Virus record (IMG/VR): IMGVR_UViG_2563366858_000008
Reading direction: 5' to 3' (one strand)
Source of the DNA: a virus
Lineage: Duplodnaviria > Heunggongvirae > Uroviricota > Caudoviricetes
Length of the DNA stretch: 39,834 nt
Below, piece after piece: positions 3,088 to 34,503 of the stretch. The notes beneath the pieces were generated by a model. It was not told where the DNA came from and made no database searches. It was given only the letters and a program-made list of their open reading frames with translations. Within the stretch, counting starts at the first letter, position 1. Every line of letters begins with the position of its first letter. The translations under genes were made by a program, and so were the position numbers.

Positions 3088-3190
3088 AAAGACCACCGTT
3101 TAATGTGCATGAAGCCCCACTTAGTTAGTGAAATAACACACATATTAAACCATATATGAATCACATTTAAACGGATAACTCTTCACGAAA

Positions 3191-3205
3191 TTACCCTATA
3201 GGTGA
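3191..3205. promoter_or_regulatory. Operator-like inverted repeat TTACCCTATAGGTGA (1 mismatch to TTACC-N5-GGTAA) upstream of the acetyltransferase gene
   Basis: 37 bp upstream of ATG 3242 in AT-rich promoter region. Confidence 0.4.
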
Positions 3206-3241
3206 TATCATTGGGTTATCCTATTCAAAACGATAGCAATT

Positions 3242-5182
3242 ATGTCTTATTTAAAATACAGAACAGATATTGATGGGCTGCGAGCTATTGCGGTTTTGCT
3301 GGTCGTGCTGTACCACGCAAACTTTCCTATTCATGGTGGTTTTATTGGTGTAGATGTTTTTTTCGTCATATCAGGATATCTCATTACCAACATCATATAT
3401 AAAGAGACTAAAAGAAATATTTTTTCATTCCTTAATTTTTACAAACGTCGAATAAAGCGATTGCTCCCAGCTTTTGCTTTTCTTCTTTTATTTTTATTTG
3501 TTTACTGCAAATTATATTTGATGCCAGATGAACTTATATCATTCTCTAAAAGTGCGGTATACGCTCTTCTTGGCATAAGCAATTTCTATTTTTTTAGTGG
3601 CACAGGTTACTTTAACTCAACCTCTTATGAACCGCTTTTACACACATGGTCGCTTTCCGTTGAAGAGCAGTTCTACATTGTATGGCCTTTCATCGTTTTC
3701 ATGCTCGCTCGGAACTCAGGGACAAAAAAAGCAATAATAATATCCTCATTACTATTTATTGTATTCCTTGGTATTTCACAGTATGGAGCAGTTAATTATA
3801 AAACAGCAGCGTATCTCCTACTGCCTTTTAGGTTCTTTGAGTTGCTCTCAGGTGCCCTACTTGCTATCTATAAAGATTCAATAACAAAACATCTGCGCCA
3901 CGGTTCTGTAATTTCACTGGTCGGCGTAATGCTGATTGTGTTGAGTTCATTATTTATAAATTCTAACACGCCATTTCCTGGGTTCACTGTTTTGCCTACA
4001 TGTTTAGGCGCTGTAATGCTTATTGCTGCAGGTGACTCATCCAAAAACTTCATTTCTAAAGTGCTGTCTTTAACTCCAGTTGTTTATGTAGGAAGAATTT
4101 CCTACTCTCTTTATTTATGGCACTGGCCTGTACTGATTCTTGCTGAATACAGGGGGATCGATCTTACGGCCTTAAATGCGACGGCGCTCATACTTATCGC
4201 ATTCATCATGGCAAGCATAAGCTATCACTTCGTTGAAAAGCCATTTAGGAAGGATTCGCTGCAATATTTCAGGACTGCATTTATAACCATCTACCTGATA
4301 CCATTAATAGTATCCGCTGCCTATGCAGCGTACATTTTAAAAAATGATGGTTTTCGCGCCAAAAGTTCAGAGTTAGTATCTGAATTAGAAGAGAGAAACG
4401 CGACAAATATTATGCGCCCACAGTGTATTGATAAATTATTTATCGGTAATGTAAATGACTGTCATCTTGGCGTTAATAAAGGCGAAGTAGATGGCGTGCT
4501 TCTTGGTGACTCCTTTGGTAATGCATATGCTTACTTTATTGATGAACTTGCGAAAGATGCTGGAATATCAATAACAGATACTACATATAGCTCAACACCT
4601 GTAATATCAGGAATTTATGTGCAGGATATCAGGAATAAGATATCTGACATAGATGCTAACCTGATAATGACATATACAAAAAACAGGCTGGAGTATGCAG
4701 CAAAACAAAAGTTCGCGATAATTTCCGTTTTTTGGGATCAGTACGGGCCACAAAATAATTACTTCCGTATCTTCGATAAAAACGGTGACGTATCGGAGAA
4801 TGCTTACCAGTTGCAATCTGAAGCAATAAAATATCTGCTGTCCAATGGCGTGAAAGTTTACATCATTGCAAGACCTTACCAGTCTATTGGCCCTGCTGCG
4901 ATAAACAAACTGCGCCAAATTAAGCTGCGGCATGGGGATGTAACTACTGAAAAATATGAATACGGCGTAAAGAAAGATGATCGGATAGAATACAAGTTAA
5001 AGCAGGAGTTCCCTCAGATAACGCTAATCGATCCTAACGATGTACTTTGCCACAAAGGGGAATGTGATGCCATCGTGGATGGAAAGATCATTTTCAGAAC
5101 TGATGGTTCACACCTGAATGCTGTTGGAGCAAAAAAAATCGGGGAAGAGTATTTGAAAAACTACGCAAACCCATTTCGATAA
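3242..5182 (+). CDS. O-antigen O-acetyltransferase, acyltransferase-3 membrane domain plus SGNH domain (OafA/Oac-like); lysogenic conversion
   Basis: N-terminal multi-TM domain with conserved YRxDIDGLRAIAV...H motif; C-terminal GDSFG (SGNH) motif; 646 aa; AT-rich relative to neighbours. Confidence 0.85.
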   Translation: MSYLKYRTDIDGLRAIAVLLVVLYHANFPIHGGFIGVDVFFVISGYLITNIIYKETKRNIFSFLNFYKRRIKRLLPAFAFLLLFLFVYCKLYLMPDELISFSKSAVYALLGISNFYFFSGTGYFNSTSYEPLLHTWSLSVEEQFYIVWPFIVFMLARNSGTKKAIIISSLLFIVFLGISQYGAVNYKTAAYLLLPFRFFELLSGALLAIYKDSITKHLRHGSVISLVGVMLIVLSSLFINSNTPFPGFTVLPTCLGAVMLIAAGDSSKNFISKVLSLTPVVYVGRISYSLYLWHWPVLILAEYRGIDLTALNATALILIAFIMASISYHFVEKPFRKDSLQYFRTAFITIYLIPLIVSAAYAAYILKNDGFRAKSSELVSELEERNATNIMRPQCIDKLFIGNVNDCHLGVNKGEVDGVLLGDSFGNAYAYFIDELAKDAGISITDTTYSSTPVISGIYVQDIRNKISDIDANLIMTYTKNRLEYAAKQKFAIISVFWDQYGPQNNYFRIFDKNGDVSENAYQLQSEAIKYLLSNGVKVYIIARPYQSIGPAAINKLRQIKLRHGDVTTEKYEYGVKKDDRIEYKLKQEFPQITLIDPNDVLCHKGECDAIVDGKIIFRTDGSHLNAVGAKKIGEEYLKNYANPFR

Positions 5183-5212: not shown

Positions 5213-7444
5213 TTAAGACTTCTTAAGGTACGACCATGTAACAGTGGTCGTACCGCTGCTGGTAATAGATATATACCTTTCTGATACGCTTGCTGTGAGG
5301 AACGCCGCAGTCTTCAGCGTCTGGATCATTGCTGTCGTACCATCATAAATTACCAGGAATGAAATCGCGTAGTTTGCACCTCCGCCAGAAACCCACACGT
5401 TAACATCATAAACTCCCTCAGAGTTTGGCAAAGTAAATAGCACGGACGCTACGTTAGCGTTGACCGATTTAGTACCCTTGTCGGTATAGACCGTGGGCAC
5501 CTGAAGCCCATTGGCATTTTTATTTTCTACATACCCACCAGCAATAACGCCTGACGTGATGCAGTTCGTGTAGTTAACGTTGCCGGTGCTCACAGTAGAG
5601 ATGGTTGGAGTTCCTCCGGCCGGAGCCTGGAACCGGCAGTTATCTGCATCAACCTGCGAGGTTACATCTGTGTGGATGAATGATGGATAGCCGGCCATTC
5701 CTTCAAAAGCGATCGGCGTACCATCGAAGCTATCTTTGCAGTTCAGCATCTTCACGCGAGATCCATTTATCGCGCGGTAAAAATCAACGATACCATTAGA
5801 ACCACCGAAAGATGTTTTCAACTTGTTGCCAGAACCAACTGCCCCGACTATCGAAACGGTTGAATTATCGAATGTCATAAACGCCACCTCAAGTGCTGAG
5901 TTGTTGTTTATAACGTTCGCCTCACCATCAAAACCGGAGATAAGAAATCCGTGACAATTCGAAAGGTAAATAGCAGACTGACCGATAGACTCGTTGGAGT
6001 TTACTGTCATCTTATCTGCTGCGCAGTTCGTCATCTGCCCTGAAAGGAGGTTTGTTAAATACCACGCGCATACACCCCCCATTACATAGCAGGACTCATA
6101 ATGGATCGTCGTGCCGGTGTTTTTGTAGAAACCACCGCGACTGCGACGCACCCATACATGCTCAAGCCTAGACATATAATTTCCAGAGTCGTCATATACT
6201 CCCCACCATGCCCCATCTATATCGACGTTTTTAATCCTTATCAAACCCGGCGATGTCTCACCACCATTTATAAGAATGCCAATTTTACCGTCGTTTGTGG
6301 CAGCATCTGTTGGATAGTCAATTCCATTCTGATCATAGAAAATATATAAATTCTCAATATTTCCTGAAGCAAAAGACTCTCCATAATGGAAGCACGCTTT
6401 ATTTCCAATTACGGAAATAAAAGTCCCTGATCTGTTTATTATGTTATTACACTCACCGTATACAGTTGCAGATGTATTCATCTTAATAGTGTCATTAACA
6501 AAATATGCATTTCCACCTGGAATAAACACATTTCGTCCAGTGTTAATAGCTGCCTGTATTCCTGCGTAGTCAAAAGACTGGGTAAGCGATGTCACAAATG
6601 GATATACCATTTGTGCTGCTGTCAATGTTGAAAACACTTCGCTTAACTGATGAAGTTTTCCATCGCCTGTAGCACCAAAATCTTTTGCACTAATAAAATC
6701 GCTGTTTTTATCATGCTGTGTACGAATAAATGAACTAATGAAAGGTTGCTTCACCGAGATCAGAGCATCGCCTTTCCCGTCCTCGCCGCTGGCCAACTGG
6801 TTGAATACATCAGCCGCCGTTCCTGAAGGCACAGGGAACGGAACGGGCTTACCGTTGGCGATGCCGATTATGCTTCCTTCAAGTTGAGCGAGAGGTGGCA
6901 GCGGATCGATATAAGAATCAGGAACACGGATTGTATGGTCGATATTCGATAAAACCGTACTGTCCACATAATTCTTTGTGGATGCATCCTGCGGGTTTAC
7001 CGGGTCTTTCAGGTTTCGAATATAGTTGTTCAGCGCGTTATAATAATTTGCCACGAATGACGGCTTGCGCAGCGCCAAGCTAAACCAACTTCGAACCTGC
7101 TGGATCAGCATCGTTAGCTTATCAAAAGCATCCTCATGCACTTCTGCAAAGAACTTCCCCTGATTACGCAAATCAGTTTCCTGCGTAACCGGGAGCTCTC
7201 GTGATATAGAAATCTGGTAACCGTTAGCTAACGCCTTCGACAGAATTACATTACCGCCGTTATATCCACCAGCCCCAGTGACAGTGTAATCAGTATCAAG
7301 AGCCAGCACAGCGATATTTTCGTCAAGGTCAACCACCTGCACTACCAGATCAGATTCCTTGAAAACCCTAAAGGTATAAGGGAATGAAGTCGTAACGCCA
7401 TTGCCTGTGTATTCGTTGTGGTCAACTTCGGTTGAGACCGTCAT
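5213..7444 (-). CDS. Tailspike protein
   Basis: 743 aa; N-terminal MTVSTEVDHNEYTGNGVTTSFPYTF resembles the particle-binding domain of epsilon15-type tailspikes (recalled); central region has beta-helix-like repeats; GGAG RBS. Confidence 0.75.
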   Translation of the reverse strand: MTVSTEVDHNEYTGNGVTTSFPYTFRVFKESDLVVQVVDLDENIAVLALDTDYTVTGAGGYNGGNVILSKALANGYQISISRELPVTQETDLRNQGKFFAEVHEDAFDKLTMLIQQVRSWFSLALRKPSFVANYYNALNNYIRNLKDPVNPQDASTKNYVDSTVLSNIDHTIRVPDSYIDPLPPLAQLEGSIIGIANGKPVPFPVPSGTAADVFNQLASGEDGKGDALISVKQPFISSFIRTQHDKNSDFISAKDFGATGDGKLHQLSEVFSTLTAAQMVYPFVTSLTQSFDYAGIQAAINTGRNVFIPGGNAYFVNDTIKMNTSATVYGECNNIINRSGTFISVIGNKACFHYGESFASGNIENLYIFYDQNGIDYPTDAATNDGKIGILINGGETSPGLIRIKNVDIDGAWWGVYDDSGNYMSRLEHVWVRRSRGGFYKNTGTTIHYESCYVMGGVCAWYLTNLLSGQMTNCAADKMTVNSNESIGQSAIYLSNCHGFLISGFDGEANVINNNSALEVAFMTFDNSTVSIVGAVGSGNKLKTSFGGSNGIVDFYRAINGSRVKMLNCKDSFDGTPIAFEGMAGYPSFIHTDVTSQVDADNCRFQAPAGGTPTISTVSTGNVNYTNCITSGVIAGGYVENKNANGLQVPTVYTDKGTKSVNANVASVLFTLPNSEGVYDVNVWVSGGGANYAISFLVIYDGTTAMIQTLKTAAFLTASVSERYISITSSGTTTVTWSYLKKS

Positions 7445-24345: not shown

Positions 24346-24413
24346 ATCAATGACTCCGTACGCAATTAAATTATTACCAATTTAACCACATATGATTTAT
24401 TTATCGTAGATAG

Positions 24414-31022: not shown

Positions 31023-31083
31023 CTTTACCCTCGCTTATCCACATAACTTATTGATTACATTGATAACTAAAAAGATCGTCGAT

Positions 31084-31545: not shown

Positions 31546-32331
31546 TTACTTGATAAATCCTGACGCCTTTCCCCGCCTGTATTCCTCCATCAGCCACTGC
31601 GCCGGTGTTATTCCCCCCAGGGTGGCGGCGTTAGGCATGCACCCGAAACTTCGCCCTGGCGGGTGGTAAACGTCTCTCCCTGTGTCCGGAGGCGTACTCA
31701 TGGGTTCTGGCTTTGCCTGTATGCTGATCACCGGATCGGGTATCTGCTGCCCGGAAGCCACCTTTTTCGCCCAATCATCGAGCAGCCTGCGCGCGTGTTT
31801 CTCAACCTCAATCTCGCTAAGCTGGCGCTGATACATTGCACGGCGGGTATCACATACGACCCAGTACATAACCGGATGCCGCCACGGGAATCTTTCGGGA
31901 CCACCAGGATATAAACTTTTTTCCTTGCTGTACCGGTGAAACTCCGCCATCACATCGTCAATGGTGACGCCAAGAACCATCTTGCTGTCTTTACACCACT
32001 TGATAAATTGCCCTGGCGACGGCCAGAACGGAGATTCACTGGCGCGGGCGTGGCGCATACCAGCAGAAACCTGTTCACGGGTTCGGATCCCCCCTTCGGC
32101 AAACGCAGCAATCCACTGCTGTTTTGCAGCAACTTCCTGCTCTGGCGTCTTCAGGTTGGTTACTACTGCCGCCGGAAACAGTTGTTTCAGCTGTTTGAAA
32201 AGGGCATCAACAAGCCTCTCTGCTGACATGTTCACCACATTGTCATTGTTGACGTACTGATGCTCATAACCTGACATGCGAGAAAGGGCTTCTCCGTCAC
32301 GGTTTTGTATCGCGGTAAAAACGTTGTTCAC
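31546..32331 (-). CDS. Replication protein P-like (helicase loader)
   Basis: Segment FPAAVVTNL...WIAAFAEGGIRTREQVSAGMRHARASESPFWPSPGQFIKWCK aligns with lambda P (recalled); GGAGGA RBS before GTG 32331, overlapping the O-like stop (GTGA). Confidence 0.8.
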   Translation of the reverse strand: MNNVFTAIQNRDGEALSRMSGYEHQYVNNDNVVNMSAERLVDALFKQLKQLFPAAVVTNLKTPEQEVAAKQQWIAAFAEGGIRTREQVSAGMRHARASESPFWPSPGQFIKWCKDSKMVLGVTIDDVMAEFHRYSKEKSLYPGGPERFPWRHPVMYWVVCDTRRAMYQRQLSEIEVEKHARRLLDDWAKKVASGQQIPDPVISIQAKPEPMSTPPDTGRDVYHPPGRSFGCMPNAATLGGITPAQWLMEEYRRGKASGFIK

Positions 32332-33167
32332 AAGAAATCCTCCCACGCTTCAGGGCTGTTCCAGTGCGGAACGTTGTTATCAGGTAATGTTGATTGCTTC
32401 TGTCTGCTAATCTGCAGCCGCCTTCCCAGCTTCTGCTCCCACTGTGCCTGATGGTATGCCTTACCCTCAGCCATCCAGTAAATTCTGAACTCTGCAAGTT
32501 CCTGTGCCGTTGGCAGACTGTCCAGGTAGATCCCCTGCAATGAGCTTTTCCGAAGAAAGTCATCTGATGGTTGCCATTGTTCATGCATGACAAATTTGCC
32601 TAATTGCCCTGGCCCACCAGGAGGAACAAAGTTATTCATCACGGCGTTGTTTGCGCCGGGGTCATGAGGCACAGAATCCCCGGTTTTTGTCCTGCTCTCC
32701 CTCTCTTGGTTAAATGACTGGTTATATGACTGGTTCTGGATCCCGTTTTTGGGATCATTCAACATCCCGTTTTTGGGATCATTCAACATCCCGTTTTTGG
32801 GATCATTCAACATCCCGTTTTTGGGTATATTCCCGTTTTCGGGAACATTACCGTTTTCGGGTTCATTACGTCCTTCTAGGTTGCCTTTAATGTTCCCTTT
32901 TTTGGTTATATTAAGAGAGAAAACCCGCACTCTTTTCGTCGCTCCCTTTCTCTCTCCGGTATCTGAAATAAGCCCCATTTTCATGAGCGATATAAGCCCG
33001 GCCTGCACGGTTTTTTTATTCAGGCAAGTGTCTTTAACGAGGCGTTCTATGCTGGGGTAGCAGAGGTTATATTCATCGGCTCTGTCAGCCATCGAGAGCA
33101 GTATGAGCTTTAATGACGAGCTACCTGGATCTGTCTCCCAGGCCCAATCTGTTGCATGTCTGCTCAT
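32328..33167 (-). CDS. Replication initiator O-like, with internal origin iterons
   Basis: N-terminal helix-turn-helix-like region; central NGMLNDPK x3 repeat encoded by DNA iterons; directly upstream of P-like gene. Confidence 0.7.
   Translation of the reverse strand: MSRHATDWAWETDPGSSSLKLILLSMADRADEYNLCYPSIERLVKDTCLNKKTVQAGLISLMKMGLISDTGERKGATKRVRVFSLNITKKGNIKGNLEGRNEPENGNVPENGNIPKNGMLNDPKNGMLNDPKNGMLNDPKNGIQNQSYNQSFNQERESRTKTGDSVPHDPGANNAVMNNFVPPGGPGQLGKFVMHEQWQPSDDFLRKSSLQGIYLDSLPTAQELAEFRIYWMAEGKAYHQAQWEQKLGRRLQISRQKQSTLPDNNVPHWNSPEAWEDFL
32741..32866. repeat. Origin-like iteron array inside the O-like gene
   Basis: Three exact 24-bp units TCCCGTTTTTGGGATCATTCAACA (32741, 32765, 32789) then three degenerate 18-bp units, each with a CCCG-T(4-5)-GGG dyad; AT-rich stretch follows. 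Confidence 0.75.
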
Positions 33168-33182
33168 GATTAATCTCCGCTA

Positions 33183-33383
33183 TCAGCTTGAGTGTTGTGG
33201 GGAGGAATTAATCATGATCTGCTTAATCTCTGCCCTGATGCGACGGTTTGATTCCATGGTGCACTCAACACAGTGTCCGTTGTAAACCCAGCGTTCACTG
33301 TCATGTCCGTGCTTACATGGTTTTCCGGTGTAGTAGCGTTTAAGTCCGCGCTTTGCGGCATCAATACGTGTAATGATTTCCAT
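33183..33383 (-). CDS. Small zinc-binding protein
   Basis: Start MEIITRIDAAKRG at ATG 33383; CKHGH...CVEC motif; 66 aa. Confidence 0.45.
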   Translation of the reverse strand: MEIITRIDAAKRGLKRYYTGKPCKHGHDSERWVYNGHCVECTMESNRRIRAEIKQIMINSSPQHSS

Positions 33384-33463
33384 GGTAAGCCCTGTTATTA
33401 GTATTGGGATTACGGTTATTTTGTGCTGACACAAAAAAAAGATCAACCAGATTTGGTTTTTTG

Positions 33464-33533: not shown

Positions 33534-33764
33534 TCATGAGTAGAAGAAGTACGCCAGTTCTGCTTTTGAGCGCAGCCATCGTCTTGTTTTACAGGCTTTA
33601 AAAAGCCCATTCATCAATACCTTACCTGGCATTTTGCGCTTACCTGTTAAGTGAGTCTGGATATAGTGACTCGTCGTTCCGGCTTCCTGTGCGAAGGCTT
33701 CACGCTCATCCGGAGTAAGTGCAAGCCAGTGTTTTTTGAAATCGAAATGTCCGTTATCGCTCAT
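33534..33764 (-). CDS. Cro-like small regulator
   Basis: 76 aa; divergent from the repressor gene across the three-site operator region. Confidence 0.5.
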   Translation of the reverse strand: MSDNGHFDFKKHWLALTPDEREAFAQEAGTTSHYIQTHLTGKRKMPGKVLMNGLFKACKTRRWLRSKAELAYFFYS

Positions 33765-33918: not shown

Positions 33919-34503
33919 ATGAAAAGTATCCAGGACGTCCGCAGGCAAAATCTCAACGACTTGATCGACCGTGAATTCAATGGTGTTCAGACGCGGATGG
34001 CAGAAAAACTTGGAACTCAGGCAAATCTGGTAAACCGCTGGGCTCTTGGCAAGAAGGTTATCGGCGACCAGGTTGCGCGAAAAATTGAAGCTGCCGCCAA
34101 TAAACCCCGTAACTGGCTTGATATCGATCGCTCGCTTTCTCAGGAAGGTTTTCAGCCTGTCGGCCCAAGCGACATTGGTCAGCTGGCGGCTCACAACCTG
34201 GAACGCTGGATGAGCGAAAGCCGCGACCTTTCAACACAGGGAAAACTTCACCGCGCATCCGGCGTCGCCCAGGTGACAATCAGCCGCCTGTTAAACAATG
34301 AGGTCAGCGTTTCCATTTCCACCCTGGAGAATGTTGCATCCGCATTCGGGCGTCACGGCTATGAATTACTGATTCACCCGCACGACCCTGCGACTATCAA
34401 CTATGACCGCTCGCGCTACGCATTGTTACCCGAAACAGAGAAGGCAAAGATCGAAAGTTACATTGAATTTGTCATCAGCCAGAACGAAAAAAACAAACAA
34501 TAA
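33919..34503 (+). CDS. Prophage repressor, tandem HTH (XRE-type), no autocleavage domain (cI-like)
   Basis: Two HTH-like segments (QTRMAEKLGTQANLVNRW and ASGVAQVTISRLL); 194 aa, no room for an S24 peptidase domain; divergent from cro-like gene. Confidence 0.7.
   Translation: MKSIQDVRRQNLNDLIDREFNGVQTRMAEKLGTQANLVNRWALGKKVIGDQVARKIEAAANKPRNWLDIDRSLSQEGFQPVGPSDIGQLAAHNLERWMSESRDLSTQGKLHRASGVAQVTISRLLNNEVSVSISTLENVASAFGRHGYELLIHPHDPATINYDRSRYALLPETEKAKIESYIEFVISQNEKNKQ

Follow-up and report, generated by a model that had tools for sequence, protein, structure and literature searches.

A probable replication origin formed by iterons inside the O-like initiator gene of a phiV10-like Escherichia coli phage

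We analysed a 39,834-nucleotide stretch of viral DNA (IMG/VR record IMGVR_UViG_2563366858_000008, hereafter the window), in which a cluster of short direct repeats lies inside an O-like replication initiator gene on the minus strand. The 1.9 kb around the repeats share 97% identity with Escherichia phage phiV10 and with other genomes of Uetakevirus, and the window is, judged by its sequence, a phiV10-like (Uetakevirus) temperate E. coli phage. Our analysis indicates that six strong boxes, together with one or two degenerate ones, are very probably initiator-binding iterons that mark a theta-type origin within the initiator gene itself. That an origin may lie within the gene of its own initiator is textbook knowledge from lambda, phi80, P22-type phages, and several phages of Gram-positive bacteria, and PHROG already labels relatives of this initiator "O-like". 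The arrangement is therefore an ordinary one; the initiator in this case is of a less studied family, and of a different Pfam family from lambda O. The original prediction had proposed origin iterons inside an O-like gene as in lambda, and all of the comparative tests that we ran favour that reading.

Tandem Repeats Finder reported a 24-bp period repeated 3.6 times with 100% matches (score 172, positions 32740-32825) and an 18-bp period repeated 3.1 times with 83% matches (score 75, 32815-32869), in agreement with the three exact 24-bp and three degenerate 18-bp repeats that had been described at 32741-32866. These are by far the strongest tandem repeats of the window; the next (score 51) is an adjacent 12-mer repeat at 32707-32735, and the program found no other iteron-like cluster in the whole 39.8 kb. 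The 12-nt core CCCRAAAACGGK, with at most one mismatch, occurs six times between 32742 and 32861, always on the minus strand, compared with a chance expectation of 0.57 from 100 dinucleotide-preserving shuffles, none of which reached six. On the plus strand the core reads CCCGTTTTTGGG or CCCGTTTTCGGG, which bears out the CCCG-T(4-5)-GGG dyad claimed for each repeat, and the box sequences of the window are ATCCCAAAAACGGGAT and TTCCCGAAAACGGGAA. A repeat search recovered seven 19-nt copies in register, at spacings of 24, 24, 24, 18, 18, and 45 bp, the seventh being degenerate.

In gene order, and all on the minus strand, iteron 1 occupies 32849-32867 (core CCCGAAAACGGT at 32850-32861, 18-bp spacing), iteron 2 occupies 32831-32849 (core CCCGAAAACGGG at 32832-32843, sense GTTCCCGAAAACGGGAAT), and iteron 3 occupies 32813-32831 (core CCCAAAAACGGG at 32814-32825). 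Iterons 4-6 (32741-32807) are three identical units spaced by 24 bp, with cores at 32790-32801, 32766-32777, and 32742-32753, each carrying the dyad ATCCC-AAAAAC-GGGAT and the 3' flank TGTTGAAT; the dyad arms in these 24-mers extend to ATCCC-N6-GGGAT, with an A5 tract at the centre. The degenerate upstream box (32894-32912, minus strand, sense ACCAAAAAAGGGAAC, ACCAAAAACGGGAAC in phiV10) lies 45 bp ahead of iteron 1, and a weaker match downstream (32676-32690, minus strand, sense ACAAAAACCGGGGAT, ACAAAAAACGGGGAT in phiV10) may be a further degenerate box. All units are in frame within the minus-strand open reading frame (ORF) 32328-33167, the translation of which confirmed three copies of NGMLNDPK in the initiator; the repeats encode ...PENGNVPENGNIPKNGMLNDPKNGMLNDPKNGMLNDPKNG..., the units reading PENG-NV-PENG-NI-PKNG-MLND-PKNG-MLND-PKNG-MLND-PKNG. 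They correspond to codons 100-143 (gene nt 301-427), the part of the gene that codes for the linker joining the DNA-binding domain at the N-terminus to the C-terminal domain, and the iterons of lambda and phi80 hold the same relative position. The codons of the boxes are rare ones, with CCC, which makes up 11.6% of proline codons in the long ORFs of the window, used in all six and GGG (17.4%) in five of six, a supportive result whose nominal probabilities are overstated because the copies are not independent.

The GenBank record of phi80 annotates four gp15-binding sites inside gene 15, with the sequence TTCCCGAAAACGGGAA, and box 2 of the window (GTTCCCGAAAACGGGAAT) contains exactly this 16-bp sequence. 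The shared box is translated as F-P-K-T-G in phi80 and as P-E-N-G in the window; as it is read in a different frame in the two phages, it is the DNA that they share and not the peptide. Extra copies of CCCAAAAACGG(G/A) are likewise found in other frames (encoding TQKRD, PQKRD, and DPKTE) in Edno5, EPP-1, PPompW, and Vibrio phage H20. To survey the wider family, we collected 58 complete homologous genes from one-genome-per-species contigs using a profile scan built on four sequences; their sources include Vibrio, Acinetobacter, Pseudoalteromonas, Marinomonas, Proteus, Providencia, Desulfovibrionaceae, and Sphingobium, among others. At least three copies of an 11-mer (3-10 repeats) were present within gene nt 241-560 in 52 of the 58 genes, the window having six, while of the controls 2 of 57 downstream segments reached three copies and neither the 58 upstream flanks nor the 58 shuffles ever did. 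More than one frame is used by the copies in 40 of the 52 repeat-bearing homologues, at spacings of, for example, 17, 22, and 23 bp. The arms of the dyad also change across the family in mirrored fashion (ATCCC/GGGAT, ACCCCC/GGGGGT, AGTACC/GGTACT, GTACCA/TGGTAC, GTCGGA/TCCGAC, and GTTCCA/TGGAAC), as a site for a symmetric protein dimer predicts. These comparisons support the view that selection on the boxes acts on DNA rather than on the peptide.

The repeats are co-inherited with the HTH_36 domain of the initiator across the family, and over the first 95 residues, which include this domain, the window initiator is 40-56% identical to those of H20, Edno5, AB1, and EPP-1. Edwardsiella phage Edno5 (locus L009 of our comparison set, 1501-2343) has an HTH_36 N-terminal domain and CCCAAAATTGGG iterons joined to lambda modules, namely the right arm of the lambda origin (TCCGAGAATTCTAACGAATCCTCAGAC, coding for SENSNESSD) and a lambda-O-type C-terminal domain, with a P gene after it; as far as its sequence tells, it is a natural chimera in which the HTH_36 module exactly takes the place of that of lambda. 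Enterobacter phage Tyrion shares the DnaT-like C-terminal domain and the P protein with the window but differs from it in the N-terminal domain, and it has no boxes. Short repeats of other kinds do occur in the linker region of its initiator (locus L013, 3143-3166; GGATCAG repeated 3.4 times and TCCCTGATCC twice), and these may be initiator sites of its own.

The initiator gene (32328-33167, minus strand, 279 aa) was identified from the ORF list, Pfam, PHROG, and its 97% DNA identity to phiV10 gene p43, which is annotated as a replication initiation protein; the product matches phrog_1032, "replication initiation protein", with an E value of 5.8e-112. Its N-terminal domain is a winged-helix-type HTH_36 domain (PF13730, E 2.5e-10, residues 18-67; encoded at 32967-33116, minus strand, by the Pfam coordinates), presumed to be the iteron-binding domain. 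The C-terminal domain is DnaT-like (PF17948, E 9.1e-15, residues 192-259; encoded at 32391-32594, minus strand; E 2.5e-20 to the DnaT C-terminal domain in PDB) and is presumed to contact the P protein or single-stranded DNA (ssDNA). Residues 188-273 match the C-terminal ssDNA-binding domain of DnaT (PDB 9zbt, 6aep, and 4ou6; E about 1e-20), and it is because of this match that databases use names such as "primosomal protein I" or "DnaT-like". For the NCBIfam DnaT equivalog (NF002770) the cut-off is 201 bits, and the full-length protein, at 82 bits, falls far short of equivalence to DnaT. Calling the gene O-like, as the original prediction did, is thus correct for its function and position and incorrect for its Pfam content, which is HTH_36 plus DnaT and not Phage_rep_O. 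At a deeper level, phrog_678 and phrog_345 ("replication initiation O-like") match the N-terminal halves of lambda O, phi80 gp15, and the window initiator (residues 1-153, E 2.2e-13, and residues 3-169, E 7.5e-9, respectively, in the latter), and a remote common origin of the three origin-binding modules is therefore likely. A single-sequence AlphaFold2 model of the initiator was poor, with a mean predicted local distance difference test score (pLDDT) of 36.6.

Immediately downstream lies the lambda-P-family helicase-loader gene (31546-32346, minus strand; PF06992, E 1.5e-56; phrog_109 "P-like helicase loader", E 7.2e-92). By homology to the phiV10 annotation it starts at a GTG at 32331, overlapping the initiator stop codon. 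Close relatives of the window comprise 78 near-identical IMG/VR loci, which are informative for copy number and not for divergence. In 11 of these 78 (L024 and ten other loci in the range L016-L095; window equivalent approximately 32250-32420), unrelated sequence has replaced both the C-terminal ~25 residues of the initiator and the first ~60 of P, while the remainder is ~99% identical, which suggests that the C-terminal tail of the initiator and the N-terminus of P contact each other.

A second repeated element directly adjoins the iterons. Starting 5 nt past the last iteron core, three 12-mers (GAACCAGTCATA / TAACCAGTCATT / TAACCAAGAGAG; 32701-32736, minus strand; a 12-bp period repeated 2.4 times in Tandem Repeats Finder) form what we call the GAAYC triple, defined as GAAYC, 6-8 nt, KAAYC, 6-8 nt, KAAYC, beginning 5 nt after the GGG of the core. 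The triple is present at exactly this offset in 50 of 65 HTH_36-type initiator genes (loci L096-L160, gene nt ~370-560) from many genera, compared with one such cluster in control flanks that add up to 187,640 nt. Successive units are mostly spaced 12+13 or 13+12 (25 nt in total), which puts them in two frames in 46 of these 50 genes; the spacing in the window is 12+12. In most lineages an A-run such as AAAAATAAAAA comes after it. GAAY also occurs at +5 past every iteron core, as in GGG ATGTT GAAT (window), GGT ACTTT GAAT (H20), and GGG ATTTT GAAT (Edno5). Among 71 distinct close relatives the triple has no variable site, although per-site diversity in this set is too low to test constraint on the boxes; a variable spacer is present at gene nt 290-300. 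By these comparisons the triple appears to be conserved as DNA across reading frames, whichever C-terminal domain or helicase loader is paired with the initiator, and by analogy it is probably part of the origin core, at the start of the unwinding or loading region.

The initiators of oriC, RK2, and F bind repeated 13-mers as single strands, one of the two strands being contacted by Rep in RK2 and F (PMC4081077), and the role of the triple may be likened to that of the 13-mers bound by TrfA and RepE, or of the DnaA-trios beside DnaA boxes. It is possible, though we put this forward tentatively, that HTH_36-type origins share the triple as a second sequence-specific element, at which the initiator passes from the duplex iterons onto the unwinding element. 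Such an origin family would reach Enterobacterales, Vibrio, Pseudoalteromonas, Marinomonas, Acinetobacter, Desulfovibrionaceae, and Sphingobium. We found no earlier description of the GAAYC triple, which may be the one new feature here.

The original prediction also had an AT-rich stretch following the repeats. Such a patch exists at 32885-32924 (33% G+C, compared with 48.7% for the window), and in a nearest-neighbour profile it belongs to the least stable 0.8% of 40-bp windows (z 2.6). It lies upstream of the iterons in the gene sense, however, and shares part of its length with the degenerate seventh box. The AT-rich region of lambda comes after the iterons when gene O is followed in its direction of transcription (PMC7466680), and the patch is on the opposite side and not its positional equivalent. 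Family-wide, the more AT-rich side is on average the downstream one (34 loci versus 14; minimum 30-bp G+C of 0.26 versus 0.33), and in the window itself this order is reversed.

The number of boxes varies considerably among the 78 close relatives. Each has between one and four complete 24-mers, the number of 18-mers varies too, and the total comes to 4-8 boxes, a count that includes the upstream degenerate box; the proteins range mostly from 263 to 287 aa in length. Two complete 24-mers are the most frequent state, and the form seen in the window is a minority one (3 of 78). In a comparison of seven phage records, the window exceeds phiV10, PAS61, phiv142-3, and PH444 by one 24-mer and BP9 by two, and phiV10 has one extra 12-mer. 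Perfect identity of the 24-mers together with variation in their number indicates that slippage or unequal exchange has acted recently upon an array that is older and constrained, and such in-frame 24-bp duplications would be tolerated because the protein segment is a low-complexity linker. In a separate case, phage YDC107_2 (L004, CP025713; 1580-1900) has 1-base indels in the homopolymer runs of its iterons (CCGGAAAAC, CCCAAAAAACGGG) that split the initiator ORF into several small annotated coding sequences, which reflects either sequencing error or a decayed prophage.

Several results weigh against an origin at the iterons. In the literature that could be searched, phiV10-type phages have been the subject of no experiment on binding, replication, or origin mapping, and our searches on phiV10 and epsilon15 origins, on the box sequence, and on HTH_36/DnaT iterons returned nothing relevant; likewise, no origin is annotated in the phiV10 record or in the other records of this group that we inspected. 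There is no cluster of DnaA boxes in the window, which has one perfect box where 1.46 are expected by chance. The initiator is not a member of Phage_rep_O (PF04492), unlike lambda O and phi80 gp15, BLASTP detected no significant similarity to either of them, and hhalign of the N-terminal alignments gave a weak match (probability 41%) in the recognition-helix region, which we did not use alone for homology. The flank downstream of the iterons (32701-32739) is only mildly AT-rich (41% G+C, 6.5th stability percentile), and the window, unlike most of its relatives, has no A-run after the triple. Finally, as all units are multiples of three and all boxes lie in one frame, the window taken alone cannot separate selection on the peptide from selection on the DNA.

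Iterons are known to have secondary control roles in iteron plasmids, and the alternative that retains the most weight is that the boxes bind the initiator mainly for regulation, through titration, handcuffing, autoregulation, or a roadblock to O-P transcription, with opening and loading taking place elsewhere. A variable copy number would fit the tuning of dosage, and the mild AT content of the flank that corresponds to the AT-rich region of lambda agrees with opening at another site. We nevertheless consider this improbable. In lambda and phi80, where the layout is the same and the box nearly so, these sites serve as the origin itself (PMC7466680); the GAAYC triple and, in most relatives, the A-run abut the last box in the layout of an origin core; and the window has no second iteron-like cluster. 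By analogy with phi80 and lambda, a regulatory role alone is less economical than an origin.

It is less probable still that the repeats matter only as peptide, with a low-complexity linker rich in N, P, G, and K having been expanded by replication slippage and the DNA having no role; the origin would then lie elsewhere or be undefined. The single reading frame of the window would agree with this, as would the 100% identity and polymorphic number of the 24-mers, which is typical of slippage, and the AlphaFold model, itself of poor quality, has no secondary structure at residues 99-200. Against it stand the retention of the same DNA box in other frames in relatives and in phi80, the repeat spacings in 40 of 52 family members that are not multiples of three, the co-variation of the dyad arms, the identity of the box to an annotated gp15-binding site, and the fact that no close relative has fewer than four boxes, the upstream degenerate box included. 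We give hardly any credence to the idea that GGGAT on the plus strand pairs with ATCCC of the next unit ahead of T5 to form three terminator-like structures that stop antisense transcription: a terminator scan does list three sites at 32750-32817, but each stem is short, with 6 pairs of which 3 are G-C, and encloses an 8-nt loop, such sites are not in excess of shuffles (5 versus 3.5 +/- 2.0), the structures are an automatic by-product of tandem dyads, and relatives with other spacings do not keep them.

If the iterons do mark the origin, the following sequence of events may be proposed. Early rightward-type transcription from a cro-side promoter would lead to expression of the initiator and P, and dimers of the N-terminal HTH_36 domain would bind the ATCCC-N6-GGGAT dyads. 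The dyads, bent around their A5 tracts, might then assemble into an O-some-like nucleoprotein complex, the strain of which would open a neighbouring, easily melted segment. By family homology the favoured site of opening would be the GAAYC triple at 32701-32736, with the patch at 32885-32924 as the alternative. The DnaT-like C-terminal domain and the tail of the initiator would recruit P-DnaB, so that the host helicase is loaded as in lambda, and the perfect 24-bp units would represent recent in-frame duplications.

The neighbourhood of the initiator gene follows the order known from lambda, in which the initiator lies between cro/cII-like genes and the lambda-P-family gene. The early genes on the minus strand are, in order, a cro-like gene (33534-33764), a small ORF (33183-33446), the initiator, the lambda-P-family gene, and a DUF1064 gene, with a divergent repressor on the plus strand (33919-34503); this is the layout of a lambdoid early-right operon. 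A promoter-like site is present in the divergent region and a terminator-like site ahead of the small ORF. A perfect 11-nt inverted repeat (TCATGATTAAT / ATTAATCATGA, at 33164-33174 and 33207-33217, with 32 nt between the arms) straddles the start codon of the initiator (33167) and the end of the upstream ORF, and could be an operator or a translational-coupling hairpin. The single DnaA box, TTATCCACA at 31035-31043, was considered as another origin and rejected, as its occurrence is at chance level; it lies in an AT-rich intergenic stretch (31023-31083) between a 206-aa ORF and the DUF1064 gene. Elsewhere, the least stable and most AT-rich 40-bp windows of the whole sequence are found at ~3.1-3.8 kb (3130-3770), where they may be foreign or moron DNA, and also at 6326-6365 and 24365-24404.

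The 1.9-kb region is 100% identical to a prophage in one E. coli chromosome, and related copies are present in 424 of 5426 complete E. coli genomes (~8%). Genomes of phiV10-like phages are also deposited as 41-kb circular extrachromosomal records in two assemblies, for which PLSDB lists no plasmid replicon type; these records are consistent with autonomous replication and do not locate the origin. Replication modules of the phiV10 type also appear inside records of two unrelated large phages, Escherichia phage BP9 (PP488543, at 134-137 kb of a 138-kb Vequintavirus record) and phage PH444 (PP350014, flagged UNVERIFIED_ORG, 115 kb), which may reflect chimeric assembly or contaminating DNA of an induced prophage.

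Our reading would assign an origin to the phiV10/Uetakevirus group, temperate E. coli phages that have been used as O157 reporter phages, and the region would mark a determinant of incompatibility and replication specificity. It would also extend the lambda-style in-gene origin to HTH_36-type initiators labelled "primosomal protein" or "DnaT-like", with nearly the same core as phi80. The repeat array explains the polymorphic length of the protein (263-287 aa), and this locus is one that assemblers and annotators may mishandle. The GAAYC triple offers a testable candidate for the step at which an initiator moves from duplex sites to the unwinding element.

Among known systems, the origin of phi80, with gene 15 as the analogue of O and gene 14 as that of P, has an identical iteron core (TTCCCGAAAACGGGAA). 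In both phages the middle part of the initiator gene holds at least four direct repeats at intervals of ~20 bp, the gene immediately downstream encodes a P-family loader, and the N-terminal halves of both initiators match phrog_678 and phrog_345. The two differ in that gp15 is a Phage_rep_O protein with a lambda-O-type C-terminal domain, whereas the window has HTH_36 plus a DnaT-like domain; there is no BLASTP similarity between them, and the box is read in another frame. The phi80 origin also has a conserved right arm, GAGAATTCTGACGAATCCTCTGAC, which is absent in the window, and has no strict GAAYC triple.

The lambda origin, in which four iterons and an AT-rich region lie in gene O and which works through an O-some and the O-P-DnaB pathway, resembles the window in its position inside the gene (lambda iterons at nt 349-433) and in the gene order cro, cII-like, O, P. 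Both use dyads with G/C-rich arms and an A-rich centre, the lambda iterons (ATCCCTCAAAACGAGGGA) being a longer-armed version of the same design. The number of iterons varies among lambdoid origins, with four in lambda and six in Stx phages (PMC7466680). The lambda arms are longer (TCCCTC/GAGGGA), and spacings of 20, 24, and 23 bp place its iterons in all three frames, whereas the units of the window are 18 and 24 bp, all in frame, and three of them are identical. The strongly AT-rich run of lambda is downstream, while the strongest AT-rich patch of the window is upstream in the gene sense, and the C-terminal domain of the window initiator is DnaT-like and not lambda-O-like.

A more distant analogy may be drawn with RK2 oriV, F oriS, and E. 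coli oriC, where direct sites for the initiator (winged-helix) are followed by three to four repeated 12/13-mers, in a place that would be equivalent to that of the GAAYC triple. The 13-mer consensus sequences of these origins are different (GATCTnTTnTTTT for oriC and TAAACnTTnTTTT for RK2), and in the window there is no DnaA-box cluster, the element lies inside a coding region, and the helicase loader is phage P. With E. coli DnaT, finally, the initiator shares the C-terminal ssDNA-binding domain only; its N-terminal half is an unrelated HTH_36 domain, and its context is a phage O-P module rather than replication restart.

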